Shown here one piece after another: positions 7,501 through 33,920 of a DNA stretch of 64,000 nucleotides (position 1 is its first letter; every line of letters starts with the position of its first letter). The translations under genes were made by a program, and so were the position numbers. A model generated the notes under the pieces. That model was given only the letters and a program-made list of their open reading frames with translations. It ran no database searches and was not told where the DNA came from. This DNA comes from a virus. The stretch is from positions 75,905 to 139,904 of the IMG/VR virus record IMGVR_UViG_3300033148_006706. One strand, written 5' to 3'.

Positions 7501-8715
7501 TTAGGAGGATTTATCTACTCTCTCAACCGAAGGGGCTAAGAGTTCTGGAACTGACAATTTTTTTCCATTCTTTTCGATACAAGCCACTAAATATCTTTTA
7601 TATGATGTGGCCTGTTTATGACGTACACCATTCCTTATACGATAATTTTCCATAAATTCCATATTCTCAATTCTGTTAATTGCGTCATCTACTGTCTCAT
7701 TGGCCTCGATAGTTGTTAGAATATATCCTTTATAATCATTATTAATATGTTGCCAATTTGCTTTTCGATATAATACTGAAAAATTTTCTAAATATTTTAC
7801 TCCATCGTTTTCAGTAAGCCCATATTCATTTTCTAACCAATAATTGTAATAATCTTCTTTTTCTTCATATTCCTCCTCTCTATCTGCATCATCATCATAT
7901 ATAAGATAATCACCATCAGATACAAAATAATCTTTAATTTTAGTATTTTTCCAATCTTCGATAATCTTCACTACTTCATACTTACATACTCTCATTTTAG
8001 CATTATTATAGTCTGCTGGTACAGTTACTACATCCTTTGGATTAACTTTTACTAATACAGTTACATCCCTTTCCGATTCTAATGTACCGTAGTAAAGCAA
8101 ATAATTATAACTACATACATGAAAGCCATAAGAACATGTCATATATCTATCAGGATCAACTTTGTCCCTATCCATTTCAATTATTTCACCTGGAGAATTA
8201 TTTATACTCCTGGTATAAATGTCAACCAATATGCCCTCTTCATTCCTTATTACTTTCTTATAAGCTAAGAAACATCCATCCTCAGTAATTGGTAAATTGT
8301 TGTGTTCTAAAAACAAATACAATTCGTTTACACTTTGTGGAGAGGGATTTTCCATCATGTTTTCAATAAACTTTACAATACTCTTCCAATCTCCTTGTTG
8401 ATCAATAACTTCTTCAAGTCTGTCAACAATAGCGGATCTTATCACTGTATCTTTATACTTGATAAGCCCATTTTCAATGGTGATTGGACTATCTTTCAGA
8501 TAATTTTCAAATTTTACTTTTCTGTCCAGTAGTTTCTTAAGACTTTGAACTAAACGACTAACGGAATCCTCATCCTCCCATTGATCAAAAGCAAGTAGCA
8601 TGTGACTTACTGGCTTGTAGTTATCTTCGGTAGAATGAACAGCATAAGATACACCGTCCATATACAACTGAATTTCATCCTTTGTCATAAAAAACTGCAA
8701 TCTGTTCTTATTCAT
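7501..8715 (-). CDS. rIIB: rIIB-like protein
   Basis: LYLFLEHNNLPITEDGCFLAYKKV, CSYGFHVC, KVNPKDVVTVPADYNNAKMRVCKYEV; adjacent to rIIA. Confidence 0.85.
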   Translation of the reverse strand: MNKNRLQFFMTKDEIQLYMDGVSYAVHSTEDNYKPVSHMLLAFDQWEDEDSVSRLVQSLKKLLDRKVKFENYLKDSPITIENGLIKYKDTVIRSAIVDRLEEVIDQQGDWKSIVKFIENMMENPSPQSVNELYLFLEHNNLPITEDGCFLAYKKVIRNEEGILVDIYTRSINNSPGEIIEMDRDKVDPDRYMTCSYGFHVCSYNYLLYYGTLESERDVTVLVKVNPKDVVTVPADYNNAKMRVCKYEVVKIIEDWKNTKIKDYFVSDGDYLIYDDDADREEEYEEKEDYYNYWLENEYGLTENDGVKYLENFSVLYRKANWQHINNDYKGYILTTIEANETVDDAINRIENMEFMENYRIRNGVRHKQATSYKRYLVACIEKNGKKLSVPELLAPSVERVDKSS

Positions 8716-8749
8716 TTTATTTATCCTCCTAATATATAATATATATTTT

Positions 8750-10987
8750 TTATTGATAGTTTTTAAGTAAATCTATCAATATCTTCACATTTTCTTCTTT
8801 TATTCCTACTCCATAATAGTCCTCTATTGAATCCTTGTCCACTATTTTTAATATCGGGTATTTATCTTCTACCTTTTTAAGCAAATCGCTTGTTTTTATA
8901 AACATTTCCGATAATTTTTTATTATTTAATACATCAAATTCATCTACAGAATATTCAAAATCGTATATTATTTTTTTCAAATTCTTTAAATCCCTCTCAA
9001 TTTCCGGTATACTACCTTTTCCTTTTTTTCTATTAATTAACTCTTTCACATCTTTGTCACTCTCAAATACTTTTTTATCACAATCGTCAACTATCTCTAG
9101 TATAGTTACAAGTTTTCTTTCAATATATGATAAGGATTTATCATGATGCATTAAAAAACTTGTATATCCATATTGTTTTATAGCTTTAGAGCTATTAAAT
9201 TTTTCTTTCAATAATACTTCTATTGATTTAAAGAATGGTTTGAATTTTGTTAATTTTTTAAATCTTTTCGTGTTAATTTCGTATCCATTAATTACAAATA
9301 TTGGAATACTGTCATTAAGCACTTCAAGACTTTTCAAAATATCTAATTTTAAATTAGGAACTCTTCTATTTTCATCTCTAACATCTTTATACGAATTTCT
9401 ATATCTTATTACATAGTATAACTGTGAATTATTCTTGTATATATCACTTTCTAGCAATTCTTTATATGTAAAACTTTTATTTATGCCATCGCAGTTATGT
9501 AAAATAGTATAAAATCTATTACTATCTTTATTTTCTGTAGCAGAAGAGTCTGTTTTACTTCTCTCTCTACCTGGTTTTCTTATATATTTAAGTTCACTTA
9601 TCTTATTTAGCTCTCCATCAACTCCCAATTTTTGAATATAATCTTCTGGAATGACTAATGCATGAAAGTTATATTGTCTCATGTTTTGTTTTAATTTGTA
9701 TATTCCGCTATTTGGATTATTTTCATCATTTATAAAAATTTTTGTCTTAGGAGACCCGATTTCACTATAAGAAATAAATGAATTTAAAACAGATGATTTT
9801 AAAACTACTCTATCTTCATAAGTATCATAAAAAGAACCTTTTTTTTGAACTTTAAAAAATTTTATTTTCTTTCTATCATCACTATTATCTATTTCCAATG
9901 CCTTTTGTAAAGGTTTTCCTTTATACCAAACGTTTCTATTAATAAAATCACGAAAAAAATCAACTTTAGAAACGATAGTATAGTAACTTCTAATCACTTC
10001 TAACAATGTCTTATTATCACTGAAATATTCTTCTTGAATTTCATCTTGAACTTTCTTTACAATTTCTTTTAATTTTAATATAAGATTATTTACAGTTCGT
10101 GTATCTAATGAAAGCGCCTCCCTACTTGGGGCAATATCAAGCTTACCAATTGGAAATTCTATCACTATAAGTAAACTACGAAGAAAATGCGTAATGATAG
10201 TCTTAAGCTCATTGTTTAAAAGATTGCTATCAGATATCAACCCCGATTTTGATAACGAATCAACTCTATATTCAACGTTCCCTTGCACAGCAATAAGACC
10301 GTTGTTATATCGTCCTTTATATATTCTCCAATCACTTCCTTTAAATATAGCATCTTTAGGGTATTCAAGTGGAGCAAAATCACCTTCTCCACCTATAACT
10401 CTTGGCTTAATCCGAAAGGGGCGAAATACTTCTTTAGCGTTTGCCTCCCACATGTAAAAGTCTCCCTTATCTACTTCAACTTGTACTTTAACTCCATTAT
10501 GCTCAGAAGTACTCATCTCTGTTACTTTTGAAATACAAGGAATGTTTTCCTCATTAAGATAACAGGCATAGATTTTCTTTTCCCCATTATATACCGACTC
10601 AACAGTAAAGGATTCCTTATACGCAAAAGGAGATTTACTCCCCAAACCCAAGACACCCACAAAGTCATTGCTTTCAGTTTTATCGCTTCCAAAATAGCTA
10701 CTGTATAACGATAAAACTTTTTCCTCACTCATTCCTGTACCATAGTCTTTAACATAGAAGTATGGTTCAAGGGAATTAGGAAGATGCACTTCAAATGGTT
10801 CTCTTTCTTTACCTGCCTCTACATGTGAATCGTATGCATTGGTAGAGAGCTCACGAATAACAGCCTTTATTTTATTTGTATATAATTTATCTGAGAGAAT
10901 TTGAAAAGCTTTTGGACTGGCAGTGATAGAAAAATTCTGCCCTTGGAGATTAGTTTTTACATTCTTTTTCTTAATCACTAATTGCAT
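8750..10987 (-). CDS. rIIA: rIIA-like protein (N-terminal GHKL ATPase)
   Basis: AFQILSDKLY, IRELSTNAYDSH, DYGTGMS, GLGSKSPFAY, APSREALS. Confidence 0.9.
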   Translation of the reverse strand: MQLVIKKKNVKTNLQGQNFSITASPKAFQILSDKLYTNKIKAVIRELSTNAYDSHVEAGKEREPFEVHLPNSLEPYFYVKDYGTGMSEEKVLSLYSSYFGSDKTESNDFVGVLGLGSKSPFAYKESFTVESVYNGEKKIYACYLNEENIPCISKVTEMSTSEHNGVKVQVEVDKGDFYMWEANAKEVFRPFRIKPRVIGGEGDFAPLEYPKDAIFKGSDWRIYKGRYNNGLIAVQGNVEYRVDSLSKSGLISDSNLLNNELKTIITHFLRSLLIVIEFPIGKLDIAPSREALSLDTRTVNNLILKLKEIVKKVQDEIQEEYFSDNKTLLEVIRSYYTIVSKVDFFRDFINRNVWYKGKPLQKALEIDNSDDRKKIKFFKVQKKGSFYDTYEDRVVLKSSVLNSFISYSEIGSPKTKIFINDENNPNSGIYKLKQNMRQYNFHALVIPEDYIQKLGVDGELNKISELKYIRKPGRERSKTDSSATENKDSNRFYTILHNCDGINKSFTYKELLESDIYKNNSQLYYVIRYRNSYKDVRDENRRVPNLKLDILKSLEVLNDSIPIFVINGYEINTKRFKKLTKFKPFFKSIEVLLKEKFNSSKAIKQYGYTSFLMHHDKSLSYIERKLVTILEIVDDCDKKVFESDKDVKELINRKKGKGSIPEIERDLKNLKKIIYDFEYSVDEFDVLNNKKLSEMFIKTSDLLKKVEDKYPILKIVDKDSIEDYYGVGIKEENVKILIDLLKNYQ

Positions 10988-14413: not shown

Positions 14414-15334
14414 TTAAACTAAGAAGTCAGGATATCCTCTGACAAAACATATTCTATCTAAACCAAATTCATCTATTATTTCCTGAAATCGCCTTCTAAA
14501 GGATACGCCACTTTTATACTTTGTGTATAGATCGCCTCCTCCGAAATCAAACCCTGATAAAAATATTTTGTCAAAACCTTCATACAATGCCTGTAAAATC
14601 CAAAAATACCCCGTATTACCTTTTCTATCATTATAGTAAAATACATTATTCCCTCTTGTACTATATAAACTAAACTTTTTACTTTTATAATTTTGTATTT
14701 CTCTAAAAAGTTTCTTATCCAATACTCCAATACGAGTAAATGGCAAATCTTCTTTATATGCATGGTTACACCCCCATAGCTCGCCTTTCCAATTTTGTAT
14801 AAAAGAAATATCAGGCTCCTCTGTCCTGGTTACCCCGTTACCTAAAATGAGCACCTTATTAGAGAAATCATTATATATGGTTTCCCCATACAATTTTACT
14901 TCTTCTTGTATAATTCCATCATAATCATTCTCTATAAAATATATATTATCACTAAAATTAAAATCATGAGATAGCTTCTGTAAATCCCGTATCCAGTTAG
15001 CTTTATTCTTCTTTTCGTGATTGGTTCTTCCTAGGTTAATTCCGCAAATATAGATATTCTTATATTCCTCGGTTAATGCATGATAAATGGCAAAAGAAAA
15101 TAAATTGAGATTAGAACCATCCGTATTACATAATATATCAAAATTTTTACCAAATTCTCTTTTATACTCCTGCGCTTTAAACAAGCCAAGATTATCTACA
15201 AATATTTTACTAAATTGAATTGATTTATCTAGAAAACGAAAATTGAATCCCCATATTTCCTCTTTCCATTCTTTAACAAATTGTTTAGATTCTTTACATA
15301 GATTATCGTTGCCGAGAATTAGGATACTTTTCAT
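14414..15334 (-). CDS. Tandem two-domain sialyltransferase-like protein (GT42/Maf-like); first domain degenerate
   Basis: VLILGNGVTR, WGCN, NTG, ALYEGFDKIFLSGFDFGG. Confidence 0.6.
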   Translation of the reverse strand: MKSILILGNDNLCKESKQFVKEWKEEIWGFNFRFLDKSIQFSKIFVDNLGLFKAQEYKREFGKNFDILCNTDGSNLNLFSFAIYHALTEEYKNIYICGINLGRTNHEKKNKANWIRDLQKLSHDFNFSDNIYFIENDYDGIIQEEVKLYGETIYNDFSNKVLILGNGVTRTEEPDISFIQNWKGELWGCNHAYKEDLPFTRIGVLDKKLFREIQNYKSKKFSLYSTRGNNVFYYNDRKGNTGYFWILQALYEGFDKIFLSGFDFGGGDLYTKYKSGVSFRRRFQEIIDEFGLDRICFVRGYPDFLV

Positions 15335-16488
15335 ATTAAAAAATCGGGCTGTTTTCCAATGAATGACATATTCTTAATCCCAAATTCTTTACTAACAGAT
15401 AAAAACTGTTTTTTAAATAGCGCCCCATTTTGTTCACTGGAATTATAAATATTTGAATTATCAAAATCAAATCCTCCTAAAACAATCTCTTCAAATTCTT
15501 CATAAATAGCCTGTAAAACAAGAAGAATTCCTGTACTCCAATTTCTCTGTTCTTTGAATAGAAAGACTCCCAATTGCTTATTTTCATATTCTTCAAATCC
15601 ATCAAACTTTAAAGTAAATATATCATAATCATAATTATTGTTAAGCTTATATTGAAGCGCCTTATCAACCATATATTTTTCTCTACAGCCAACTGCTTTA
15701 ATAGTCCTTACATTTTCCACTTCTCTATATGCTTCATTACATACCCATATCCTATGTCGCCACTTATTTATAAATTTTTTAACTGATGGTTGTAGACGAG
15801 ATTTGCCATTCCCCAATATTAAAACTTTTTCATTTAATACAATATGAGCGTTCTTATTATTTACCTCAAGATGATTTATCCCCTTTAAATACAATTTTGC
15901 ATAATAATCTGAAGGCTCATCACTCATAATAAAAGGCTTATGATCCTTCCCTATAAATATTACTTTATCCAGTCCAAGCTCATCTCGTATAAGTCGCCAA
16001 TTCCTTACCCATTTCTCCTTATTCTTTATATGATGATTTTGTACATATATATCTTTTCCACCTAGATCAAATCCAATTACATAAATTTTATCATATCCTT
16101 TTATTATAGCCCTTGCTACCAAGGTACTGCCAGAGTCTTTAATAAATAATCCAGGAATATCAATCATTTCTACACCCGGAAGCGTTTTAGCTTTTGGATT
16201 TTTTCCAAATATGCGATATTTACCCCCGTATCTTTTTTTATATTCTACAATTTCTTTTAATGCCGATATATCGCCAATTATTAAATCTAATCTTGGAAGC
16301 GAACCGTTATAGTATTCTAAATAAGCTGAATTACAGGCCCAAATTTCCCCGCTCCATTTTTGTATAAAATCCTGATGTTCTAATCTTGATATTCCATTTC
16401 CAACAATAAGCACTTCTTTTATTTTTTTTATAGAATTCTGGTGGCTGTTATTTAAATTTTTATTTTCAATAATTGAAGGATTTTTCAT
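15331..16488 (-). CDS. Tandem two-domain sialyltransferase-like protein (GT42/Maf-like)
   Basis: Two copies of GNGxSR...WxCN...(S/T)G...Y.xI...GFD, matching the CstII-type motif order. Confidence 0.65.
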   Translation of the reverse strand: MKNPSIIENKNLNNSHQNSIKKIKEVLIVGNGISRLEHQDFIQKWSGEIWACNSAYLEYYNGSLPRLDLIIGDISALKEIVEYKKRYGGKYRIFGKNPKAKTLPGVEMIDIPGLFIKDSGSTLVARAIIKGYDKIYVIGFDLGGKDIYVQNHHIKNKEKWVRNWRLIRDELGLDKVIFIGKDHKPFIMSDEPSDYYAKLYLKGINHLEVNNKNAHIVLNEKVLILGNGKSRLQPSVKKFINKWRHRIWVCNEAYREVENVRTIKAVGCREKYMVDKALQYKLNNNYDYDIFTLKFDGFEEYENKQLGVFLFKEQRNWSTGILLVLQAIYEEFEEIVLGGFDFDNSNIYNSSEQNGALFKKQFLSVSKEFGIKNMSFIGKQPDFLI

Positions 16489-17597
16489 GCTATATATTTT
16501 TCTCTATTTAAGAATTTTGGTTGCCCCTCAACAAATTTAATTTTATTTACATTAAACCAGCATCTTATTAAATTCATCTGTTTTCTATACGTTAGCCCTT
16601 CTACCGCCCTGTTCTTATAGATATGATCTCCCCCAAAATCAAAACCACTTAACCATATCATATCATACTCTTCATACAAAGCTTGTACTAAAAGAAGCAT
16701 GCCCGTTTTAAAAGAATTAGTATAAAACAGCTTAACATCTTTGTTGACTTTTTCTATAGTATAAACATCATAATCAAGATTATGCTTCTCTTTAAACTCA
16801 AGCATATCAAAAACTAAATGCGTAAACCTGGTTCCTACTCTATCAATTCTATTAAGATTATTATATTCTCTGTAATATGCATCATTACAAACCCATATTT
16901 CTTCTCTCCAATTTTTTATAAATCTTCTATTAAGAGAATTCTCTCTACTTCTTCCATTTCCTAAAATAAGCACGTTATTAGTTCTTTTAACATTCTCTTC
17001 TTGATAACTTTTTACAGGATAATTAACAAAAAAGTTTTCTTTTAAATGATCTTCTCCATTCATATATTTTCTAGCATAACTATTTATAGGCATCTCACTT
17101 AATATGAAAGGCTTATGATCTATTCCCACAAAATGAATTCTTTCTAATCCAAACACCCTTGCTATTTTTCTCCAATTATCCACCCATTTACTTTTATTTC
17201 TTCTTTCATGATTTTTTACATATATATCTTTTCCGCCCAGATCAAATCCTACTAAAAATATCTTACCATAATTTTCATATAATGCCTTTACAACAAGCGT
17301 TGACCCGGAATCTTTAATATATCTTTCTGGAATTTCAACTTTTTTTACTTCTGGTATACTTAATGCTTTTGTATTTTTACATAATAATTTATAATTTAAT
17401 TTATATCTTTTTTTAGCTCTATAAGCTTCTTTTAATGCATCCTTATCTCCTATTAGAATATCTATTCTTGGAATTTTTTTATCAATCAGGTCTTTAAAAG
17501 CCCAATTGCAAGTCCAAATTTCTCCTTGCCATTTTTGTATAAAATCCTGATGTTCTAATCTTGATATTCCGTTACCTATAATAAGAACTTCTTTCAC
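16485..17597 (-). CDS. Tandem two-domain sialyltransferase-like protein (GT42/Maf-like)
   Basis: Same duplicated motif set; paralog of the adjacent genes. Confidence 0.65.
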   Translation of the reverse strand: MKEVLIIGNGISRLEHQDFIQKWQGEIWTCNWAFKDLIDKKIPRIDILIGDKDALKEAYRAKKRYKLNYKLLCKNTKALSIPEVKKVEIPERYIKDSGSTLVVKALYENYGKIFLVGFDLGGKDIYVKNHERRNKSKWVDNWRKIARVFGLERIHFVGIDHKPFILSEMPINSYARKYMNGEDHLKENFFVNYPVKSYQEENVKRTNNVLILGNGRSRENSLNRRFIKNWREEIWVCNDAYYREYNNLNRIDRVGTRFTHLVFDMLEFKEKHNLDYDVYTIEKVNKDVKLFYTNSFKTGMLLLVQALYEEYDMIWLSGFDFGGDHIYKNRAVEGLTYRKQMNLIRCWFNVNKIKFVEGQPKFLNREKYIA

Positions 17598-18307
17598 TTA
17601 AATTTCTCCTTTAGCAATAATTCAACAATTCTAAAGTCCGTCTTTACATCTATTTCAAAATGGGTATAATAGTCCATTATAAAAAGCCCAACCGGATCAG
17701 TTAACCTGTTTTTTGATTTAATAATATTACTAATCGTGTTTATATACATAGCCCCGTTTTCCATATAAATGTTATTTTTGTAAAAACGCTTCTCTTGCCT
17801 TAAAGGCCTAGATTTAAAATCATAATTCAAGGGAATAGCCCGAGATTTTTGATATTTATGGGAAAAACTTTCAGTCCATAAAAACCTGTGATTTAGATCC
17901 GCTACTGATAACATTGAATTGTATGACCCCTTTTCATATTCATCAATCATTTTATTAACATCCTTATAATTAAGCAAAGGATTAGTAGCTTGGACAAGTA
18001 TAAAAACGTCTTCATTATTTTCGTATCCTTTTCCCAAATACTCCAATATAGCATCCTCGGTTGTTGAATTATCTTGTGCATTTTTATGTTCCCTATCATA
18101 AAAGATAATTTTATTAAATTGAAATTTTTTTATTATTAATTTATATTCTTCCGAATCGATTGCAACTATTATTTTATTAACTTTACTTTGCTGTAGAGCA
18201 CTTAAAACCCAATATACTAGAGGTCTATGATTAATCTTTTTTATATTCTTATCTTTTATTCCTTTACTGCCACTTCTTATAGGAACAAACGATATTATAT
18301 TATTCAT
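17594..18307 (-). CDS. neuA: Acylneuraminate cytidylyltransferase (CMP-nonulosonate synthetase)
   Basis: VPIRSGSKGIKDKNIK, LVQATNPL, RPLRQ, ENGAMY, EID. Confidence 0.9.
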   Translation of the reverse strand: MNNIISFVPIRSGSKGIKDKNIKKINHRPLVYWVLSALQQSKVNKIIVAIDSEEYKLIIKKFQFNKIIFYDREHKNAQDNSTTEDAILEYLGKGYENNEDVFILVQATNPLLNYKDVNKMIDEYEKGSYNSMLSVADLNHRFLWTESFSHKYQKSRAIPLNYDFKSRPLRQEKRFYKNNIYMENGAMYINTISNIIKSKNRLTDPVGLFIMDYYTHFEIDVKTDFRIVELLLKEKFK

Positions 18308-18321
18308 ATAATATTAGTCAC

Positions 18322-18924
18322 TTAAAAAATATAATCAAATCTTTCTAAATCATCAGCATATAAAGTACTAACTATATCAACAGATTTTTTATCGTAATAT
18401 TCTTTATAATTTTTTCTTCGTGGCGCTCCGAAACTTTTATTAATCTGTTTAGGCTGTGGTATTCCTATTAAATCAAATATGTGGCGTATTTCTTTTTCAA
18501 AGTTTTCAAATCTTGCAATATAATCATAATTTTTACTACCTTTAGGAATTGCAAACCAACGTAACTGCGGTACATAGTGTATTTTATGTAAAGACTCTTT
18601 TAATTGAGTTTGAATAAAATCGTTAAAATCTTTTTTTATAGCACTAAATACTTTATTGTCATTTAAATCTTTTTGAGAAAGTGAACCTCTGTTTGCCCGT
18701 GACCAATACGAAACAAGTCTATCAAAAGGATTTCTTACAATAGTAAACGTAAAGTATTTATCCCATTTTTTGGGGTACGCTTGTATGTATCGAATTGGGA
18801 AGGCATGTCTCCCACCTACTTCTTTTGGATTTATGACCATATTTTCATCAAATAATGCATTTATCGTATGCCCTCCAGTACGAGGAATACTTACAAAAAT
18901 CGTCTTGTACTTATCACTTACCAT
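18322..18924 (-). CDS. Sulfotransferase (Sulfotransfer_2-like); start revised from the ORF track
   Basis: PAPS-binding IFVSIPRTGG and FTIVRNPFDRLVSYW; YADDLERFDY. Confidence 0.85.
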   Translation of the reverse strand: MVSDKYKTIFVSIPRTGGHTINALFDENMVINPKEVGGRHAFPIRYIQAYPKKWDKYFTFTIVRNPFDRLVSYWSRANRGSLSQKDLNDNKVFSAIKKDFNDFIQTQLKESLHKIHYVPQLRWFAIPKGSKNYDYIARFENFEKEIRHIFDLIGIPQPKQINKSFGAPRRKNYKEYYDKKSVDIVSTLYADDLERFDYIF

Positions 18925-18928
18925 ATTA

Positions 18929-19129
18929 TTATACTCTCGTTGTTTGTAATATGAAGAACCCATGCCCATTAGGCCAGCTTTTATAATTATCTTTATATCT
19001 ACACCCTTGTACACCCCCCCAAGAAATATCATCCCAAAAGATAAATATCTTATCCACATAATCAGTTATCGAATTTATAGACTGCTGGACAAAATCTTCC
19101 CCATAAAGACATCTATATATTGCTATCAA
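18929..19129 (-). pseudogene. N-terminal fragment of a GT2-like glycosyltransferase
   Basis: IAIYRCLYGEDFVQQSINSITDYVDKIFIFWDD resembles a GT2 N-terminus but stops after 66 aa. Confidence 0.5.
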
Positions 19130-19817
19130 AATTCTTAATAAACTCCTTTAATTTTTCAGCATCCCGTATTCTTTCCCATTCTTTCTCTCTATATAATGCT
19201 TTTACTTTATCTCGTTTTCTTCTCGCCCTTTGATCTCTATATGTGTCATCCAACTCTGACTTACCCACACTGAAATGTAAATGCTCTATATACAGATCAG
19301 GTATATATACAAGCCTATCTATTCTTTTTGCTAAATCAGTAAGCCAAGTATCGTTATAATCTGCACTAAAGTAGGGAGGTACAAAATATCCTACTGTTTC
19401 TATCCAATTTTTATGAATAAAGCCATGGGTTCCTAACTCCCCACTATCTACAATTCCATCTCTACCGTATACGAATAAAATTTTATCAGGATATTTTTCA
19501 AATTCGCTTTTAACAATTCTATCCCATTCTTTTGTTTTATAAACAAGATCATCTCCTGCATGATGATAAATAGGACCTGTTGCTTTTCTGTAGCATTCAT
19601 TCCACATATTACTAAGTACAATCCTTTCACCAATAATGAATTTTATATTATAATTTTTTTGCAATTCTAGTGCTTTATCTCTTGATCTTTTATCGTCATT
19701 ATCAATATAAAAAACAATTTCAACACTATTAGAATCCTCTGCTTTAGAAAATGCTGAATTGCATAATCTTTCCATTCCTGACGGTCTGTTTCTTGTTGGC
19801 ACTAGTAAACTAATCAA
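19113..19817 (-). CDS. Glycosyltransferase family 2
   Basis: SLLVPTRNRP, YIDNDD, AGDD (DxD-like), YNDTWL, IEHLH. Confidence 0.85.
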   Translation of the reverse strand: MISLLVPTRNRPSGMERLCNSAFSKAEDSNSVEIVFYIDNDDKRSRDKALELQKNYNIKFIIGERIVLSNMWNECYRKATGPIYHHAGDDLVYKTKEWDRIVKSEFEKYPDKILFVYGRDGIVDSGELGTHGFIHKNWIETVGYFVPPYFSADYNDTWLTDLAKRIDRLVYIPDLYIEHLHFSVGKSELDDTYRDQRARRKRDKVKALYREKEWERIRDAEKLKEFIKNFDSNI

Positions 19818-19821
19818 CTTT

Positions 19822-20397
19822 TTACTCTCCTATTCTAATTATTTCCACTCCGGGCTGATCTTTTATATATCTCCAGGGGTCAAGAATACAAGAGCCTTTT
19901 GGAAAAGAATATGTTCCAAATTCTTTATGTCTTGTTCCAATAAAATAGATAGCTGGCTCTTGTAATGGAGGGGGACTTTTATCAATATACGGATCATACA
20001 TTTGAGCATCTATATCTTTTTCCCTTAGTATATTCTTTAAAAGGATAGCGGGGCTACCAACTTCTAAATTAGTCTGTTCTTTAAACGCTTTTCCTAAAAT
20101 AATTACGGGCAAATCCAACTGCTCTTTCTTTTCTTTTACTAATTCTGCCAACCATTCAGTTTGTTTTTCTCTGCAAAGCATAATATTTTCAAACCAATCG
20201 TACGAAAGATTAAGTTTTCTAGAAAGCCATGAAAGAGCTATATTATCACGGGGATGACAATTATGCGAAACAATATTAGATTTTTTCTCTATCCAAAATA
20301 AATCATCATTATTCTGATGATTTGGAAATAACTCTAAATTATACACATCCCCTTCATAATATAATGTTTCAATTTTTTTAATATTCTTTTTTTTCAT
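19822..20397 (-). CDS. Split intein C-part (46 aa) fused to the C-terminal half of UDP-glucose/GDP-mannose dehydrogenase
   Basis: VYNLEL (block F) and SHN/C (block G), followed by CHPRD and the GKAFK NAD-binding domain; own AGGAG RBS. Confidence 0.9.
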   Translation of the reverse strand: MKKKNIKKIETLYYEGDVYNLELFPNHQNNDDLFWIEKKSNIVSHNCHPRDNIALSWLSRKLNLSYDWFENIMLCREKQTEWLAELVKEKKEQLDLPVIILGKAFKEQTNLEVGSPAILLKNILREKDIDAQMYDPYIDKSPPPLQEPAIYFIGTRHKEFGTYSFPKGSCILDPWRYIKDQPGVEIIRIGE

Positions 20398-20751
20398 ATT
20401 TTAACACTCCTATTAGCTAATCTTCTTTTAATTTCTATTATCATAATATAATTTATCCGTTTGTTTTACTTTATCTGCTCGAATAATTTCCATTTTACCA
20501 TTCCTAAATACAGGAATTAAATGATCCTCAGTACAAATAAATTCTTCATCCTGAACAGAGAATTTATACAATTTGCCTTTATATTTTCTTTTAGTTACGT
20601 CTTTTATTAATTTTTCTTCTTTTTCAGAACAATCGCTATTAATAGATTCTATAAAAAATTTTTTATTTTCTGATGAGTGGAAAATCTCATAGAAATCCCC
20701 TATAGTAAATATTTCATTATTAACTTTTATTTTTGAATCATATAAAACACA
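20260..20751 (-). mobile_element. Naturally split mini-intein (IntN 20431-20751, IntC 20260-20397)
   Basis: C1-VLYDSKI (block A), TEDH (block B), VYNL and terminal HN with Cys+1; no endonuclease. Confidence 0.9.
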
Positions 20752-21555
20752 TCCTCCACCATCTCCCATTCCGCCCCTCATATATTTATTTGATATAATT
20801 CTATCAGTTGCAAGTGAAAGAGCCCTAGTTACTTCATCTACATTTGTATTTGGAGTCTTATGACATATCTCCATAACGGTATTCATCATAACTATTTTTG
20901 TCGATATCGCAGTGTTATAAACCACTTTTATAAGCTCTGCATTTTCTATTGTTGTTTCAAATACAGGACGATCATGTAAAGTTTTATAAAAAAGTTTTAC
21001 TGTTTCTTTCGCTGCAAAACTATCAGTTCCTAATAATACAAACTCGGGGTTCATAAAATCGGGTATTGTGGTTCCCATAGCTATAAAGAAAGGATTATAA
21101 CATAGATCTATATAAGGAGACATAAACGGACGAATTTCTCTTTCAATAGTCCCTGGTAACACTGTTGAAATAATAACCACAATTTTATGTCTTTTTATTT
21201 TATTTAATTCCTCTGAAAGTTGTATTACTGATTCTTTTAAGTAACTATAGTCAAAATCTTTTCTTTCATCCGGTAATCTTGTAATTCCTTCATATTTTTC
21301 AGCATGAGGCGTTTGTACAGCAATAAAAATTATATCAGAACGCCCCGCTACATCCTTAATTGGTAATATCTTGATATTACTATTATCGAGTAGCTCTTGA
21401 GCCCCCTCTTCTCTATATGGAATTTTTTTATCTTTTATAATTTCTTTAACTTTCTCGGAAGGATCATATCCCACTACTGAATGGCGCCCAAATTTTTCTA
21501 TTGCTAAAGCGCAAGGTAGCCCCAACTTTCCAAGACCTAAAAATCCTATATTCAT
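20428..21555 (-). CDS. N-terminal half of UDP-glucose/GDP-mannose dehydrogenase fused to split intein N-part (107 aa)
   Basis: GLGKLG Rossmann motif, AVQTP, STVLPGT, YNP, AELIK, GMGDGGG/C then intein motifs. Confidence 0.9.
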   Translation of the reverse strand: MNIGFLGLGKLGLPCALAIEKFGRHSVVGYDPSEKVKEIIKDKKIPYREEGAQELLDNSNIKILPIKDVAGRSDIIFIAVQTPHAEKYEGITRLPDERKDFDYSYLKESVIQLSEELNKIKRHKIVVIISTVLPGTIEREIRPFMSPYIDLCYNPFFIAMGTTIPDFMNPEFVLLGTDSFAAKETVKLFYKTLHDRPVFETTIENAELIKVVYNTAISTKIVMMNTVMEICHKTPNTNVDEVTRALSLATDRIISNKYMRGGMGDGGGCVLYDSKIKVNNEIFTIGDFYEIFHSSENKKFFIESINSDCSEKEEKLIKDVTKRKYKGKLYKFSVQDEEFICTEDHLIPVFRNGKMEIIRADKVKQTDKLYYDNRN

Positions 21556-22553
21556 TTGAAAACTCCTTCGTATATTCTTAAATAATCATTCAATATTTTT
21601 TCATTATTCCAATGCTTCTCCATAAATTCTCTTGAATCCCGCTGAAGTTTCTTTAACAAACTTCTATTTTCATTTAACTCTGTAATTGTAGTAGCTAAAG
21701 AGTGCTTATCTGCCAGCACCCAGGGCAATTCATACAATTCGCACTTTAAGAACTCGGTAAGGTATTGAATCATCCAGTCTTTTAAGTTACACATAACTAC
21801 TTTCCCTTGTGATAGCCCCTCCAATGATGATAAATGATAGCTGCCAGTATAAATATCGTCAATATGAATATCACCTGAGGCTCGTCTTTTTAAACACTCA
21901 TCAAATCGTTCTCCGTAGATAATATCTTTTTCTATAATACCTTTACTTTCTAATTCATTTAATATAGCAGAAACCTCGCTATAACTTTTATAAGCCCATG
22001 TGGATTTCCTCTTTTTTTTAAGTTTTTCCAACGGCTCCTTATTAGATGGGCTATAAGTAACTTTTATTCTTTCATTATTAACTTCCTTGTATTGAAGCAA
22101 AGGGTCGCATATATCAACAACATTACGCACTGGATAAAAATCATCTTTAAGTAAAGACTTCAATCTTACCGCTTGATACTGTGCAATACAAGCTATTCTG
22201 TCTATTCTTACCCATTTCTTAATAACATTAAACATTTCATTAATTACTTTCTCAGGCTCACCGTGCATCTGGTACACAAACGGTTTATTAATATTGCTTA
22301 GCATTTGCCATCCCTTGCTATTTTTATGTAAAGGAGGCTGATTATGAATGTGTATAATATCTGCCCAGTTAAGATATTCTTTAAATTGTTTTAAATCTTC
22401 TTTACCTTTACCCCATACAACATCTGGTATTATTTTCATACTACTTAATCGAGATTGAATGCACTTTGATTCTATCCCATTTTTATTTAAAAAATTACTT
22501 AACCTAACCGGCGCTCCTGCTAATGGTGATCTACAAAGATGCAATATTTTCAT
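21552..22553 (-). CDS. GT-B fold glycosyltransferase (GT4-like)
   Basis: ADIIHIHN, HGE, SSLEGLSQGKVV, SREFMEKHW. Confidence 0.65.
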   Translation of the reverse strand: MKILHLCRSPLAGAPVRLSNFLNKNGIESKCIQSRLSSMKIIPDVVWGKGKEDLKQFKEYLNWADIIHIHNQPPLHKNSKGWQMLSNINKPFVYQMHGEPEKVINEMFNVIKKWVRIDRIACIAQYQAVRLKSLLKDDFYPVRNVVDICDPLLQYKEVNNERIKVTYSPSNKEPLEKLKKKRKSTWAYKSYSEVSAILNELESKGIIEKDIIYGERFDECLKRRASGDIHIDDIYTGSYHLSSLEGLSQGKVVMCNLKDWMIQYLTEFLKCELYELPWVLADKHSLATTITELNENRSLLKKLQRDSREFMEKHWNNEKILNDYLRIYEGVFK

Positions 22554-23310
22554 CTAGTAGAAACTCCTCATCGTTAAACAATTTAAAGACAACATCATTA
22601 TAATATTTGTCTTTCATTAAATGTAAGTTTTTCCAACTATTGAGATAATCCTTTCTTGAGAACGATAGTTTTCCAACTTTCTTTTTATGCTCGATACTCT
22701 TAGCGTATTGCGCACTCTCTTCAGCACTTTCAATATAACTCCCATCAAATCCAACATAATATATTTCTTTATATCCCATATACGCTGTAAGAAAATAAAA
22801 CGCTCCCACTACCGAACCTTGTGCCTGTACAATTATATTATCTTTATATTCGGTATTGAAGCTCCCCTTCCGGATATCATTATCATCAATATTATTTGAT
22901 TTAAAAAAATATATGTTCTTCAGATTCTTTATCTTTTCATAAAGTGACATAATTATTTCTATATCTAATGGGCTATCATTTCTTTTTTCCTTTTTCTCAA
23001 TATGAAATGAAAAGATAGCATGCGGTAGTAATACATATTGAGCTAAATGTAATTTATCTACATTTCTTCTAAGTCCTTGATAATGAAAATTAACAGCATA
23101 CTGAACACTCTTACTAGCTGTAAAGATAGATATAGCATCAGTAAGTGTACAAATATCATACTGCCTTTGCCCTTCCAGTTTCTTAATATTCAGCGTATCT
23201 ATAGAAGGGCCGGAGCCAATAAGTAAAGCCTTGTTATTTCGAGGCTTCCTCGGTACTTTTTCTAAAGTAGGCAGAAAAGGCTCTCTTAAGTCATCGACTG
23301 TTGTTATCAT
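22531..23310 (-). CDS. Maf/GT42-like nonulosonate transferase-like protein
   Basis: LLIGSGPS, GSVVGA, MGYKEIYYVGFDG. Confidence 0.65.
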   Translation of the reverse strand: MITTVDDLREPFLPTLEKVPRKPRNNKALLIGSGPSIDTLNIKKLEGQRQYDICTLTDAISIFTASKSVQYAVNFHYQGLRRNVDKLHLAQYVLLPHAIFSFHIEKKEKRNDSPLDIEIIMSLYEKIKNLKNIYFFKSNNIDDNDIRKGSFNTEYKDNIIVQAQGSVVGAFYFLTAYMGYKEIYYVGFDGSYIESAEESAQYAKSIEHKKKVGKLSFSRKDYLNSWKNLHLMKDKYYNDVVFKLFNDEEFLLDENIASL

Positions 23311-24047
23311 TTCTTCTTACCTGCTCTTCTTAATCGTGCCTCATAATTATAATAATCGGGGTGTTCTATGATTTTTTTTACAATATTATAAATAAAATCA
23401 TGAGTTTTTATCTTTCCTTTTTGTAGTAATTGCCACATATACTTAGCATTAGAATATTGATCATGTGGATCAACACGACCCCGATTTTTTATGTTTGCTT
23501 TATCACGAATTTTCTTAGGCAGATAGTCTGGAAAATATTCTCTATAATCGTTGGGAATAAATAAATCAGGTTTCATATAATAAAAGTCTATTCCAGTAAA
23601 CCAAAGTTCTTTTGGATTATATTGTAAAAAATGTTCCATGATAATAGGGCCGTACAGTACGCCTTTTATTTTTTTGCTAAGTTTTGCTATTGTATCAGCA
23701 AGCGTAAATGTAGGAATGGTTTTAGAGTATTTATCAATAAGATTCCTCTGATTTGTTTTCATTCCTAATAATTTCACCCCATATTTATCTCTCCATGTTT
23801 TTAAATACCCCGCCGGTTGCATTTCACGATTAAATTGTACATTCATACAAAGTATATCGCATCTCTTACCATAATTCTCCACATAAGCAACTTTATCTAA
23901 AAGAAAAATAGCGCCGTTTGTTCTTATTACGCAATCGAAACTGTCTATTTCTTTACCGAGATATTTCCCTTGTAATATCGGAGACGGGCCAACAAATATT
24001 ACTCGTTTCTCTTCTACCTGCTGCTGTAATAACTTTTCTACGTTCAA
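23307..24047 (-). CDS. GT29-like sialyltransferase
   Basis: VIFVGPSPIL...GKEIDSFDCVIRTN...YGKRCD (sialylmotif L-like); ELWFTGIDFY; distal His. Confidence 0.65.
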   Translation of the reverse strand: MNVEKLLQQQVEEKRVIFVGPSPILQGKYLGKEIDSFDCVIRTNGAIFLLDKVAYVENYGKRCDILCMNVQFNREMQPAGYLKTWRDKYGVKLLGMKTNQRNLIDKYSKTIPTFTLADTIAKLSKKIKGVLYGPIIMEHFLQYNPKELWFTGIDFYYMKPDLFIPNDYREYFPDYLPKKIRDKANIKNRGRVDPHDQYSNAKYMWQLLQKGKIKTHDFIYNIVKKIIEHPDYYNYEARLRRAGKKK

Positions 24048-24595
24048 TATTTCTTCCTTATAACACAGGATGTATCTTTAAATATTTCATCTGGAAATTT
24101 AAGTACTTCATTAAAAGCCTTTCTGACTCCTGGATGATGCTTACTATTACTATAATCATGTAGCGCCAGGAAGCCATTTATTTTTAATTTTGGCCACCAT
24201 AAGCCAATATCTTCCTTTACATTAAGAAAATTATGATTAGCATCGATATAAATAAACATTAAAGAGTTATTTTGAAACATTTTACAAGCTTCTTTACTTG
24301 TTGTTTTTATTTTATAAATATTAGAATACTTTTTACAAAGTTCATCAAATTGCTTTTCTACTATTTCCATAGGATATTTATATGAAGAAGCGTCATTTTT
24401 ATCATATCCGTTTTTCCAAGCATCAATCGCTATAACCTGATCAAAATTTTTTGCAAATATTTCTGTACTATCTCCTACGTAAGAGCCTATTTCTACAACT
24501 TTGGCAATAGTAGGATCTATTCGCTTTACATAAGCACATAAATCTTGAAGTCCCGATTTTGCATTTCTAGCTTTTCGTATACTAATTTTTTCCAT
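24044..24595 (-). CDS. Class I SAM-dependent methyltransferase (Methyltransf_24-like)
   Basis: VEIGSYVGDS, IDAW, IYIDANH, HDY; start revised to MEKISI. Confidence 0.85.
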   Translation of the reverse strand: MEKISIRKARNAKSGLQDLCAYVKRIDPTIAKVVEIGSYVGDSTEIFAKNFDQVIAIDAWKNGYDKNDASSYKYPMEIVEKQFDELCKKYSNIYKIKTTSKEACKMFQNNSLMFIYIDANHNFLNVKEDIGLWWPKLKINGFLALHDYSNSKHHPGVRKAFNEVLKFPDEIFKDTSCVIRKKY

Positions 24596-25374
24596 TATAT
24601 CTCCATACGATAATAATACATCCAAAGTTCTTCTAATTCATCATACCCTTTATTTAATTTATCCCTAGGGGATTTATCCCAAGGCTTTTGACTTACAAAG
24701 TGAAGTAGTCTTACTTTTTCGTTAGTTATTCTATACAATAAATCTCTATTTCTACTAAAGAAAATTTTATGTTTCTTACCTTTCCACATTCTCTTCTCAC
24801 AATTATATTCTTTCGGAAGAATGTGAATCATCTTTTTAAAGTATTTATTAATAGCTTTTTGATCCGGCATTGAAAATCCCCGCCTTGAAAACTGTAAAAT
24901 ATTTTTATACAGCTTAAAGTCTAGATAGGGTTTATTTACAACAATGACGCCAGTATTTATTCCGCTTCGTAGATTATCGCTTCCTGATCCATAAGCCTGC
25001 ACTCCCGCCAATCTTGCTCCACATCGAAAAAGTGGATTTAAATCTCCTAATGCAATAGTATCCATATCGATAAAAACAACTCTATCACAATCAGTATAAG
25101 AAAAAATATCAAGTTTGTAATACGTATTTTTTAAACAATCGTCTGTTATTGACATATTAATGTGTTTATAATTTTCAAATCTTGGTTTTACAAACTCTAC
25201 ATTATCATGTAATAAAGAAGCCATATAACCTTTATTTGAATTAGAAAGCCCCATATCAATAAATCGCCATTTATAATTTAATATTTTGGGACTATTTTTT
25301 ACCACCGATTTATAAAAAGCAATAAAGCCGGGCATAAACGCATTATCTATCATTGACAGTAGAATAATTTTCAC
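24595..25374 (-). CDS. Glycosyltransferase family 8
   Basis: FIDMD, INTGV, DQ..IN, YN, HFVSQKPW. Confidence 0.9.
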   Translation of the reverse strand: MKIILLSMIDNAFMPGFIAFYKSVVKNSPKILNYKWRFIDMGLSNSNKGYMASLLHDNVEFVKPRFENYKHINMSITDDCLKNTYYKLDIFSYTDCDRVVFIDMDTIALGDLNPLFRCGARLAGVQAYGSGSDNLRSGINTGVIVVNKPYLDFKLYKNILQFSRRGFSMPDQKAINKYFKKMIHILPKEYNCEKRMWKGKKHKIFFSRNRDLLYRITNEKVRLLHFVSQKPWDKSPRDKLNKGYDELEELWMYYYRMEI

Positions 25375-25376
25375 TC

Positions 25377-25628
25377 TTATATCTCTTCGTATGTCCTATT
25401 AAATATATCGATTTTACAGGGATAGAACTCTCCATTTACTCCTTGTATTACATAATTTCCTTTTTCACATTTCATGTCCCCCTCTAACGTTTTTATAACT
25501 AAGGCATTACTTGACTCCACAGATAAATGACAATGAGATTTACAAAGTTTTTTTATCTCATCCAAATTATTTCCATCCCATCTTATTGCTTTCACAATGA
25601 TTGGCTTCTTTCTGAATTCTTTCCACAC
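25377..25628 (-). CDS. Small conserved phage protein
   Basis: RKKPIIVKA..W.G.N...IKTLEG...GEFYPCK.DIF..TYE family pattern. Confidence 0.75.
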   Translation of the reverse strand: MWKEFRKKPIIVKAIRWDGNNLDEIKKLCKSHCHLSVESSNALVIKTLEGDMKCEKGNYVIQGVNGEFYPCKIDIFNRTYEEI

Positions 25629-25629
25629 T

Positions 25630-26484
25630 TTAATTACCTCCGATCCTTAAATTCTTTTTCTTCTCTTCTTCTCCTGGATATAATACTCTTGGCCCGTATC
25701 CTTTGGATAACCCCCTCTCAATATCTCTTACTCCTTTAACAAGCTCAAATAAACCATTAGGTTCAACTGAAGCTGCTTGATCACTACCCCACAGATTATG
25801 ATTCAACGTTATATGCTTTTCTATCCATGTAACTCCATACGCAAGCACTGCAAATGCATCTTTAATTCCGTAATAATGAGAGCTATAACCGATTTCTTTT
25901 CGAGGATACTTTTCTTTCAACCATTTTACATACTGTAAATATAAATCATCAATAGAAGTAGGATACACACTATTTGTATGCATAATAACATGAGGATCTA
26001 ATATATTAACAGCTTTTTCTATTTCCTCCTCAGTACTCATGCCCGTCGACATTATCCTATAATCAAATAAATCTCTACATAATTCAAGAAGTGCGTCGTT
26101 GGTAATAAGAGCAGATGGAATCTTTACAATATCCACAAATTTCTTCATGAAATAAGCGCTGTCTAAATCCCAAACCGATGCAAACCAGCCTATTCCACAA
26201 CTAAAACAATAATTATCAATTTCAGCATAATTGTCTTCATTAAATTCAATATCTTTTTTATATTGCAAATATGTAATAGGCTTTTGTCTCCAAGGTACAA
26301 TTTTTTCTTTATTTTTCTTATCTTCAGGAACGCAGATATCCGGATTTCTTTTCTGGAACTTTACATAATTACAATCTGCAGCACTAGCAATTGTAATAAG
26401 TTTTCTAGCACTTTTAATAAACTCTAACTTATCATTTCCAAAGAATGCATTTAAGCCAATCTCAGCTATTATCTTAACTTCCAT
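25630..26484 (-). CDS. neuB: N-acetylneuraminate (nonulosonate) synthase family protein, short form without SAF domain
   Basis: IIAEIGLN, VKFQKR, KIPS, STGMS, HTNSVYP, GYSSH, IEKHITL. Confidence 0.9.
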   Translation of the reverse strand: MEVKIIAEIGLNAFFGNDKLEFIKSARKLITIASAADCNYVKFQKRNPDICVPEDKKNKEKIVPWRQKPITYLQYKKDIEFNEDNYAEIDNYCFSCGIGWFASVWDLDSAYFMKKFVDIVKIPSALITNDALLELCRDLFDYRIMSTGMSTEEEIEKAVNILDPHVIMHTNSVYPTSIDDLYLQYVKWLKEKYPRKEIGYSSHYYGIKDAFAVLAYGVTWIEKHITLNHNLWGSDQAASVEPNGLFELVKGVRDIERGLSKGYGPRVLYPGEEEKKKNLRIGGN

Positions 26485-31548: not shown

Positions 31549-32118
31549 TTATTCATAATAATTAAAAAGAACAGGCATTATAAAAGCCATATACCGGAAT
31601 TTATTATACTGCTGCGATGATACAAGAATCAAAGGATTAAAAGGTTCCGCAGGTATTTGTACTTCCAGAAAATAACCGGAAGGAATATTCTTTAAATAGT
31701 CACGTAAATGATCGTATTCGATAGTCCAAGTTTCTTTTGTGTTCCAGTTTTTGGACATTTTAATGATTATGTCCGTGTATATGAGCGGTATCGAGCTAAC
31801 AGGATATTGAACTAAATATTGAGTTTGTAATTTATATTTCTGCATCACCCGCTTGTGATCTGGGAAATTAATATTATCAGATTGAATCAGATATTTATTT
31901 TTTAGATCAATATAATAAATTCCTTCGGGCAAAATTATATCCTCGTCTGTAGTTTCAACAATATACATTCTCTTAGTATCGGTACTTACAAGAGAATAAC
32001 CTGTTGAGAGGATATGACCGAAAAACGGCAACCGAGTGCCTTTCCCGGCAGCTACCTTCAAGTATTTTATCAGCGGTTTTAAATCTTGATGAATAAAAAT
32101 CTGATCTTTTTCTTTCAT
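31549..32118 (-). CDS. Half-size beta-sliding-clamp-like protein
   Basis: LVSTDTKRM, NFPDHKRVM and C-terminal FIMPV resemble DnaN domain II-III motifs. Confidence 0.55.
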   Translation of the reverse strand: MKEKDQIFIHQDLKPLIKYLKVAAGKGTRLPFFGHILSTGYSLVSTDTKRMYIVETTDEDIILPEGIYYIDLKNKYLIQSDNINFPDHKRVMQKYKLQTQYLVQYPVSSIPLIYTDIIIKMSKNWNTKETWTIEYDHLRDYLKNIPSGYFLEVQIPAEPFNPLILVSSQQYNKFRYMAFIMPVLFNYYE

Positions 32119-32139
32119 TTTGTTATCCTCCGTTTTATT

Positions 32140-32598
32140 CTATCTATCAAATTTAAAATAAACTCTCGGTTCAATCTCCCCAGGACGTCCAACGTCAAAC
32201 CCGATGGGCATGATCGGTTCTAATTCATAAGCTCCTAGAAAGCCCTCGAGAAGATTCTCTTGATCGATTTGATCAAGAGTAAGAAAGATTGCCTCTTCAG
32301 CTGGAGATAGGGAAGCGCCAACATTACCTAAGAACCAGAGTTGACCGAAATTGAGATTTTTAACCTCAACTTCAACTCTGTACCATGGGTCATCAGCAAG
32401 AATGATCCATTTTGGAAAACTCTGCCCCCGCAAGGCTTTCCTAAGATCATTTACAGATGGGAATTTATACTTCCCGTTTGTATTGATCGTTAGAGATAGA
32501 GAGCGAGGGGCTGGAGCTCCTTCTTTCTTTACTCCATCCCAAGAGAATCCAGGGCGGATTGAAAAAGAATATTTCATTTCTCTCATTTCTCCTTTCAT
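32140..32598 (-). CDS. Hypothetical early protein, paralog of 33212-33676 (true start probably 32577)
   Basis: IRPGFSWDG...QLWFLGNVGASL...DVGRPG shared with the paralog. Confidence 0.7.
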   Translation of the reverse strand: MKGEMREMKYSFSIRPGFSWDGVKKEGAPAPRSLSLTINTNGKYKFPSVNDLRKALRGQSFPKWIILADDPWYRVEVEVKNLNFGQLWFLGNVGASLSPAEEAIFLTLDQIDQENLLEGFLGAYELEPIMPIGFDVGRPGEIEPRVYFKFDR

Positions 32599-32611
32599 TA
32601 TAATATATTCT

Positions 32612-32674
32612 GCTTACAACGTAAGCTTACAGCCGTGCCCAGGAATCGAACCTGGGCTAACCACCAGGACGGCT
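32612..32674 (-). ncRNA. tRNA-like intergenic element, copy D (most perfect)
   Basis: AGCCGT/ACGGCT closing stem, CCTGGTGGTTA loop, GCCCAGG-TTCGATT-CCTGGGC T arm, then GCTTAC-GTT-GTAAGC. Confidence 0.7.
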
Positions 32675-32686
32675 AATTCCAATTTG

Positions 32687-32917
32687 TTAGTACTGCAATT
32701 TTTCCAAAAGCCACACATACCCATCCCATTCATAGCGAATAGGATGAACGATAAACCCGTCTTCTCTCGTATGGTTGCGAAGATATCTTTCTACAGCTCC
32801 AGGGCTTCTCTTTATAATTCTGTATGGATGATCTTCCTGCTGCTGCAGAAACCACATGAGATCAATGATCTCATCCTTCTTTCCGTTCTCCCAAATTTTT
32901 ACCACGTCATTTCTCAT
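32687..32917 (-). CDS. Small hypothetical protein
   Basis: GAGGTG RBS. Confidence 0.6.
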   Translation of the reverse strand: MRNDVVKIWENGKKDEIIDLMWFLQQQEDHPYRIIKRSPGAVERYLRNHTREDGFIVHPIRYEWDGYVWLLEKLQY

Positions 32918-32934
32918 TTCTTCACCTCTCCATT

Positions 32935-33111
32935 TTAATAATCTTCTCCAGGTTCTCTTCTTAGAACCTTTTGAAGTCTAATTTTATATGCTCGAGGACT
33001 TAGAACTTCTAAGTCCTCATAATTTTTGACGAAATCAAAGCACTTTTCCATATTCCCCTCAAAGAGGACATCTGCCCTTTTGAAGGAAACCACAACCCAC
33101 TTTTTCTCCAT
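32935..33111 (-). CDS. Small hypothetical protein, 58 aa (MEKKWVVVSF...), not in the ORF track
   Basis: AAGGAG RBS; follows hairpin copy E. Confidence 0.55.
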   Translation of the reverse strand: MEKKWVVVSFKRADVLFEGNMEKCFDFVKNYEDLEVLSPRAYKIRLQKVLRREPGEDY

Positions 33112-33141
33112 CTTTCTCTCCTTTCTTTTTCATAATCTTCT

Positions 33142-33159
33142 ACTTGCCATACGGCGAGC
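33142..33159 (-). repeat. Repeat copy E (downstream hairpin only)
   Basis: GCTCGCC-GTAT-GGCAAGT-AGAA, matching the hairpin of copy F. Confidence 0.65.
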
Positions 33160-33211
33160 TATATTCCTATAAATATATCACTTAGCGAACTTTTGGCCCC
33201 AGCTTCCCCCT

Positions 33212-33894: not shown

Positions 33895-33920
33895 TTTCTT
33901 TCTCCATTTAATGATTTTCT

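Follow-up and report, generated by a model that had tools for sequence, protein, structure and literature searches.

A predicted naturally split intein at the catalytic cysteine of a nucleotide-sugar dehydrogenase in a viral genome

Organization of the locus

The window analyzed here, to which all coordinates below refer, is a 64,000-nt stretch of the IMG/VR virus record IMGVR_UViG_3300033148_006706 (positions 75,905 to 139,904 of that record). It contains two adjacent genes that, read together, encode a nucleotide-sugar dehydrogenase predicted to be interrupted by a naturally split intein directly in front of its catalytic cysteine. According to the window sequence and the translations of its open reading frames (ORFs), the two genes are co-directional on the minus strand and separated by 30 nt. 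Gene 1 (20428-21555) encodes 375 amino acids (aa), consisting of 268 aa of the enzyme and a 107-aa N-terminal intein half (IntN), and its C-terminal part reads GMGDGGG/CVLYDS...TEDH...DNRN before the stop, the slash marking the boundary between enzyme and intein. Gene 2 (19822-20397) encodes 191 aa, a 46-aa C-terminal intein half (IntC) followed by 145 aa of the enzyme, and begins MKKKNIKK...VYNLEL...IVSHN/CHPRD.

The enzyme part of gene 1, the N-extein (20752-21555, minus strand, residues 1-268), covers the NAD-binding and central domains (PF03721, 82.1 bits; PF00984, 49 bits; TIGR03026 positions 1-269) and ends in GGMGDGGG. IntN (20431-20751, minus strand, gene 1 residues 269-375) has its first cysteine, Cys1, at codon 20749-20751 and its block B at T342-E-D-H345; it ends in DKLYYDNRN and is closed by a TAA stop codon (20428-20430). 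The spacer (20398-20427, minus strand) is exactly 30 nt long, in frame and without room for a gene. It holds three more in-frame stops (TAA, TAG, TAA) as well as an AGGAG motif (20407-20411) located 9 nt before the ATG of gene 2, a putative ribosome-binding site (RBS). IntC (20260-20397, minus strand, gene 2 residues 1-46) contains block F (VYNLELFPNH) and block G (IVSHN). The C-extein (19825-20259, minus strand, 145 aa) opens with the +1 Cys (codon 20257-20259) in CHPRD and continues into the C-terminal nucleotide-sugar-binding domain (TIGR03026 positions 264-358); this third domain of the enzyme scored 23.9 bits with PF03720, under the cut-off of 30, while the two domains of the N-extein passed theirs. 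Joining of the two exteins would yield a product of 268 + 145 = 413 aa. The lengths of both intein halves and of the product, along with the RBS and the stops in the gap, are as an initial annotation of this DNA had given them.

The operon is tightly packed. The upstream gene (21552-22553) and gene 1 share 4 nt, in which the stop of the former overlaps the ATG of the latter, and a GT2 glycosyltransferase gene (19113-19817) begins 4 nt beyond the stop codon of gene 2 (19822-19824, minus strand). Between 19000 and 23000 no terminator was found on the minus strand, and neither the 30-nt gap nor the sequence immediately preceding it contains a promoter-like site; the sole nearby one (20269-20242) is located within gene 2.

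Identity of the enzyme

The enzyme retains the residues of the UDP-glucose dehydrogenases (UGDHs) in PDB entries 4a7p and 3gg2, with ELIKVVYN matching the ELIK..YN motif and GGG/C-HPRD matching GGxC..P(K/R)D; the catalytic Cys of the latter motif would be joined to GGG only after splicing. With the profile TIGR03026 (cut-off 189.8), an intein-free 417-aa homologue from a 642-kb uncultured huge phage (LR756502.1; here L001) scored 189.2 bits and a homologue with a contiguous intein (P0002) scored 190.3. Scores for L001 were far under the cut-offs of the UDP-glucose 6-dehydrogenase equivalogs (AglM, 163 against 670 bits; TuaD, 105 against 700 bits). Because the cut-offs of the equivalog and subfamily models were not reached, we refer to the enzyme as a nucleotide-sugar dehydrogenase rather than as a UGDH (EC 1.1.1.22). 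On these profile scores it is a borderline TIGR03026 member of the UDP-glucose/GDP-mannose dehydrogenase family, and the name UDP-glucose dehydrogenase in the initial annotation is thus retained at the level of the family, including the GGxC-P(K/R)D motif, and dropped for the specific enzyme.

Identification of the intein

The insertion is precise and in frame relative to intein-free homologues. The L001 protein reads GMGDGGGCHPRDNIALSW unbroken across the insertion point, and four IMG/VR homologues (L003-L006) likewise read GDGGGCHPRD uninterrupted. Work on UGDHs has established that the cysteine of this motif is the active-site nucleophile. Since the N-extein could be aligned with 4a7p and 3gg2 as far as GGSC in their GGSC-FPKD motif, the +1 Cys is the active-site nucleophile of the family.

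Searches with profiles for intein domains identified the N-terminal intein region TIGR01445 in gene 1 (residues 269-347, 30.6 bits; 32.5 bits in a read-through of both genes; cut-off 24.5), and a match to PF14890 ran through the gap, joining the two halves over positions 10-145 of the 155 in the profile. A profile built from the intein family matched the mini-intein of Mja KlbA (2jmz) with an E-value of 1.6e-13, and blocks B (TxxH; T-H-D-H in KlbA) and F (..NH) were aligned. Matches of the same profile to ubiquitin were rejected as repeat-driven, with no significant single domain.

All residues expected to take part in splicing are retained in the window, namely Cys1, T342, H345, the block-F His27, His45, Asn46 and the +1 Cys. 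Cys1 (C269) directly follows GDGGG and is invariant in 15 N-halves, across which the Thr of the block B motif TxxH is also invariant and its His is at least 90% conserved. The end of IntC, H45-N46, followed by the +1 C47, is invariant in 13 C-halves. In the IntC alignment, which comprises the window and 12 other split C-halves, the invariant positions are V18, Y19, N20, L21, E22, P25, H27, H45 and N46.

We modeled the structure of a read-through protein (P0241), in which the TAA and TAG codons of the gap were translated as Gly, using AlphaFold2 with an alignment of relatives (A5, tails trimmed). The model had a pLDDT of 70 and a pTM of 0.66, with core values of 75-90; the parts of low confidence were the termini, the artificial linker and one IntC loop. 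Foldseek comparisons with the PDB gave inteins as all top matches, and the 44 matches with E <= 0.001 comprised inteins along with HINT domains of other kinds (BIL, Hedgehog). Ranked first was the Aes123 PolB1 split intein in its fused form (9hth; E = 1.9e-8, 25% identity), and further matches included KlbA, TFIIB, NrdJ-1, gp41-1 and Npu DnaE. The model thus predicts that IntN and IntC together adopt the horseshoe fold of a HINT domain. Residues, homologues that read through the junction, the TIGR01445 score and the modeled fold agree in placing a naturally split intein immediately before the catalytic Cys, where the initial annotation had located it.

Conservation of the split

Both proteins were present in exactly the same form on 5 JGI contigs. 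A search of 5.8 billion proteins yielded 14 further clusters of N-halves (370-378 aa, 53-57% identical), all of which end at the same alignment column, and 12 further clusters of C-halves (185-192 aa), which open with an IntC of 45-46 aa. From a scan for the DNA pattern of MGDGGGCV we fetched 17 viral and 43 metagenomic loci, of which 16 and 17, respectively, carry this intein. In total, about 30 viral or metagenomic contigs break at the split position of the window, corresponding to 12 distinct split alleles, the one in the window included, after removal of duplicates. The break falls between blocks B and F. A contiguous relative (L025) bridges the split point, and in another (P0242) a LAGLIDADG domain fills the same interval. 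From these comparisons we conclude that the split is not an artefact.

Among the pattern matches, L021 and the CVILKYYKRVLF group (L027, L032, L038, L039, L051, L055 and L067) were discarded as chance hits, the latter having no downstream dehydrogenase. The exact pattern also gave 22 hits in cellular genomes, all of them due to chance, and no intein carrier was found there.

Alleles at the insertion site

The alleles were grouped after removal of duplicates. Ten of them are split at the same position and have 837-868 nt between the halves, encoding a protein of 266-269 aa. This protein matches the Phage_endo_I (29.6 bits in L017; cut-off 29.1), TnsA-like, DUF7487 and PHROG 'endonuclease' families and is, as judged from these matches, a free-standing endonuclease of the PD-(D/E)xK type. 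With such a gene between the halves, the ten alleles have the layout of the 'fractured genes' described by Dassa et al. 2009 (PMC2677866). One allele (L025/L050, encoding the 565-aa protein P0002) has a contiguous mini-intein of 154 aa. An endonuclease gene is lacking from only two of the split alleles, those of the window (30 nt) and of L043 (27 nt). Finally, a search for longer homologues revealed metagenomic proteins, about 80 in number and 760-830 aa long, in which a large LAGLIDADG intein interrupts the enzyme at this very Cys, as exemplified by P0242 (GDGGG/CFLPDQ...HAN/CHPRD), whose intein is about 28% identical to the IntN region of the window and whose C-extein is about 70% identical to that of the window.

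The window intein is the most divergent of the alleles, with 37-46% identity to its relatives and the longest branch, and it groups weakly (support 75/78) with the clade of mini- and fractured inteins. On this evidence it represents a divergent, endonuclease-less member of a family that is widespread in viral metagenomes and most members of which are fractured genes with an endonuclease. The initial annotation had called a split intein in a phage sugar enzyme unusual; our literature search found no paper linking a split intein to this nucleotide-sugar dehydrogenase, but the arrangement is not a one-off.

Some of the other alleles have features of their own. P0242, P0249 and about 80 others have LAGLIDADG inteins of about 380 aa, share the extein clade and the GDGGG/C site and form a divergent intein lineage. 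The spacer of L043 (L043:2001-2546:+, Ga0265297_10061871) is in frame and contains a single TAA; the intein of this allele shares 85% identity with the contiguous one of L025. In L017 (L017:4527-6701:-, also L018 and L059; a 175,736-bp viral contig), the 725-aa ORF of the N-half is enlarged by a further insertion, contiguous and about 355 aa long, at KVFYN/CYSDD...WQGN/TFIS, within the catalytic Lys/Asn motif, so that this gene contains two inteins, one contiguous and one fractured. A fractured allele represented by L019, L048 and P0016 has T-S-D-Q in block B of IntN, with Gln in place of the His of TxxH, and its splicing may be impaired or atypical.

Proposed splicing mechanism and alternative interpretations

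We consider it probable (about 85%) that the two genes are the halves of a single nucleotide-sugar 6-dehydrogenase and that a class-1 mini-intein, naturally split at the canonical site, lies between Gly268 and the catalytic Cys. One operon transcript would probably give both halves, the AGGAG motif in the spacer serving for translation of gene 2. Once IntN and IntC had come together in the HINT fold, Cys1 would undergo an N-S acyl shift and the +1 Cys, later the active-site thiol, would accept the N-extein by trans-thioesterification. Cyclization of IntC Asn46 and an S-N shift would then release the 413-aa enzyme with a restored GDGGGCHPRD. Since neither precursor has a complete active site, activity of the enzyme is expected to depend on trans-splicing.

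Several observations weigh against this interpretation. TIGR01445 exceeds its threshold, but PF14890 remains below its gathering score of 35.8 (21.2 bits; 27.2 for the read-through). At one position of block F the Asp of the KlbA intein is replaced by Asn, although this Asn is found throughout the family. The IntC of the window differs at five nearly invariant positions (Q33L, Y35W, D37E, T40S and G41N), and IntN and IntC each have a net charge of 0 and thus lack charge complementarity of the DnaE kind. Because the allele is the most divergent one and has these five departures in IntC, its splicing could be reduced or lost. The five departures and the lack of charge complementarity, together with the long branch and with there being only two endonuclease-less split alleles versus ten with the endonuclease, are also what might be expected if splicing had ceased to be efficient after loss of the endonuclease and the two genes were remnants of a non-functional dehydrogenase heading for loss. 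We regard such decay as unlikely: both ORFs are intact, all catalytic residues of the intein and the enzyme are kept, AGGAG is correctly placed before gene 2, and the exteins are 57-63% identical to those of relatives without any frameshift. Moreover, divergence of IntN has kept approximate pace with that of the extein, the identity ratio being 0.72 as compared to 0.79 in other equally distant pairs.

Two further explanations dispense with protein splicing. The intein halves might serve only to dimerize the enzyme fragments, without peptide ligation, comparable to the split NrdA of phage Aeh1; phage enzymes that are fragmented and active without splicing have been documented (PMC3045599; discussed in PMC2677866). 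However, the break falls inside the active-site loop GGxC-P(K/R)D, so an unspliced HINT domain of 153 aa would occupy the catalytic center, and all splicing nucleophiles are conserved, which would be needless for non-covalent docking; we find this explanation very improbable. Even less credible is that the gene is contiguous, with the stops being errors of sequencing or assembly or being read through. The two ORFs do share a reading frame across the 30-nt gap, but four in-frame stops, both TAA and TAG, lie between them, gene 2 is provided with an RBS and an ATG, and the identical proteins on 5 contigs are joined by many relatives, 53-57% identical, that are split at the same position, most of them with a gene of 840-870 nt in between. 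The view in the initial annotation that the split is genuine, rather than a single nonsense or sequencing error, is upheld by the same data.

Origin of the endonuclease-less state

No free-standing endonuclease gene is present between the halves in the window, and no homologue of the endonuclease of the relatives was found in the complete 139.9-kb genome, which extends the observation in the initial annotation that the gap holds no homing endonuclease. Descent from a fractured form through loss of the endonuclease gene is the origin that we prefer and consider somewhat more likely than not. The 27-nt spacer of L043 resembles the 3' end of the endonuclease gene (best local score 18 versus a shuffle mean of 12.4, p = 0.0015), and this significant relic implies that deletion of the endonuclease gene does occur in the family. 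Speaking against such a loss in the window itself, no relic of the gene was detected in its 30-nt spacer (3' ends, p = 0.38; 5' ends, p = 0.89).

A direct split offers a less probable but still plausible route. The window allele would then have arisen from a contiguous mini-intein, or from a LAGLIDADG intein with its nested endonuclease domain deleted, when the linker acquired stops, an RBS and a start codon; a free-standing endonuclease gene would never have been involved, and the function would be unchanged. The spacer, which is in frame and lacks the relic, agrees with this scenario, as does the presence at the same site of the contiguous mini-intein in L025 and of some 80 large LAGLIDADG inteins. 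The C-extein of the window is, in addition, closest to that of a carrier of a LAGLIDADG intein (P0242). The intein sequence points the other way, since it groups, weakly, with the mini- and fractured lineage and matches the IntN region of P0242 at only 28% identity, and the other endonuclease-less split is the one with the 3'-end relic.

Comparison with described split inteins

The fractured genes recovered from ocean metagenomes consist of split-intein halves separated by a free-standing endonuclease gene, and their hosts are enzymes of DNA metabolism, namely gp41, IMPDH, DnaE, NrdA, NrdJ, ligase and terminase (Dassa et al. 2009, PMC2677866). One locus of that study, gp41-7, has no endonuclease gene (PMC2677866). 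Fractured genes with split inteins are mostly phage-borne (review PMC2874743). As judged from sequence comparison, the element in the window is a natural split intein at the canonical site whose nearest described arrangement is that of these fractured genes and specifically of gp41-7. It shares with the former the canonical split site between blocks B and F and adjacent, co-directional halves with their own translation signals, and with gp41-7 the absence of an endonuclease gene in a locus whose relatives have one. It differs in its host, a nucleotide-sugar dehydrogenase rather than an enzyme of DNA metabolism. The endonuclease of the window relatives matches Phage_endo_I and TnsA-like PD-(D/E)xK profiles and may belong to a family other than the 'Vsr-like' one of Dassa et al. 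2009.

UDP-glucose dehydrogenase has been named as an intein host in general (review PMC2874743), and contiguous inteins of that enzyme would reside in the same host family as the window intein. The claim in the initial annotation that contiguous inteins are known in archaeal UDP-glucose dehydrogenases is matched in this review by a mention of the enzyme as a host and by nothing further. The approximately 80 metagenomic LAGLIDADG inteins at the same Cys are contiguous and bifunctional, in contrast to the split and endonuclease-less intein of the window.

In the cyanobacterial DnaE split inteins, the two halves are encoded at distant genomic positions and depend on a strong complementarity of charge. 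The window intein resembles those of Ssp and Npu DnaE in being a naturally split class-1 intein with Cys1 and a +1 Cys and no associated endonuclease gene, and its predicted fold matches 4kl5 and 1zde; in contrast to them, its halves are located 30 nt apart in one operon and are both uncharged in net terms. Aes123 PolB1 (9hth), the best structural match, has a different host protein and is cysteine-less, and Mja KlbA (2jmz), the best sequence match, with blocks B and F aligned, likewise has a different host protein and is a contiguous, archaeal intein.

What is new in the window is the host enzyme, in the endonuclease-less state; the mechanism of the split intein itself is of a known kind. The locus extends split inteins from genes for DNA metabolism to an enzyme of phage glycan biosynthesis, in which one residue would serve first in splicing and later in catalysis. 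A single insertion site also displays every proposed stage, from the empty site and the large LAGLIDADG intein to the mini-intein, the fractured gene and the split without endonuclease, and models for the origin of split inteins can therefore be tested by comparison instead of speculation. Because the catalytic thiol is the +1 nucleophile and Cys1 is adjacent to it, ligation, and hence the glycan pathway of the phage, could conceivably be made conditional on the redox state or on the stoichiometry and timing of the halves during infection. We think it doubtful, however, that domestication has turned the endonuclease-less intein into a post-translational switch and that the family at the same time forms a complete natural series of split-intein origin. 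To our knowledge, naturally split inteins are the main tools for protein ligation, and useful ones that are mutually orthogonal are few. With its small size (107 + 46 aa), a Gly in position -1, a Cys in position +1 and only 37-46% identity to the other members of its family, the window intein is a candidate for such a tool.

Glycan island and genome context

The two genes are located in a glycan island (14414-26484, minus strand) that includes genes for NeuB (25630-26484, minus strand), a GT8 glycosyltransferase, a methyltransferase, a GT29-like sialyltransferase, an MptE-like protein, a CMP-sugar cytidylyltransferase (17594-18307, minus strand), a sulfotransferase (18322-19059, minus strand) and the GT2 enzyme, along with several ORFs that match no family. 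Judging from these genes, the island may direct the production of a sulfated or nonulosonic-acid glycan.

The virus record is a complete genome of 139,904 bp with direct terminal repeats and a G+C content of about 30%, and encodes rIIA/rIIB, a family-A DNA polymerase, a helicase and a ribonucleotide reductase. The genes for the rIIA-like (745 aa) and rIIB-like (404 aa) proteins (7501-10987, minus strand) adjoin replication genes (primase-like, clamp-loader-like). Some of the intein-free homologues of the dehydrogenase are labeled Pelagibacteraceae. No Rfam family matched the window at gathering score. ARAGORN predicted a 93-nt tRNA-like gene with no anticodon assigned (32630-32722, minus strand), which is situated in a patch of 41.6% G+C (32001-36000), as compared to about 30% for the genome.

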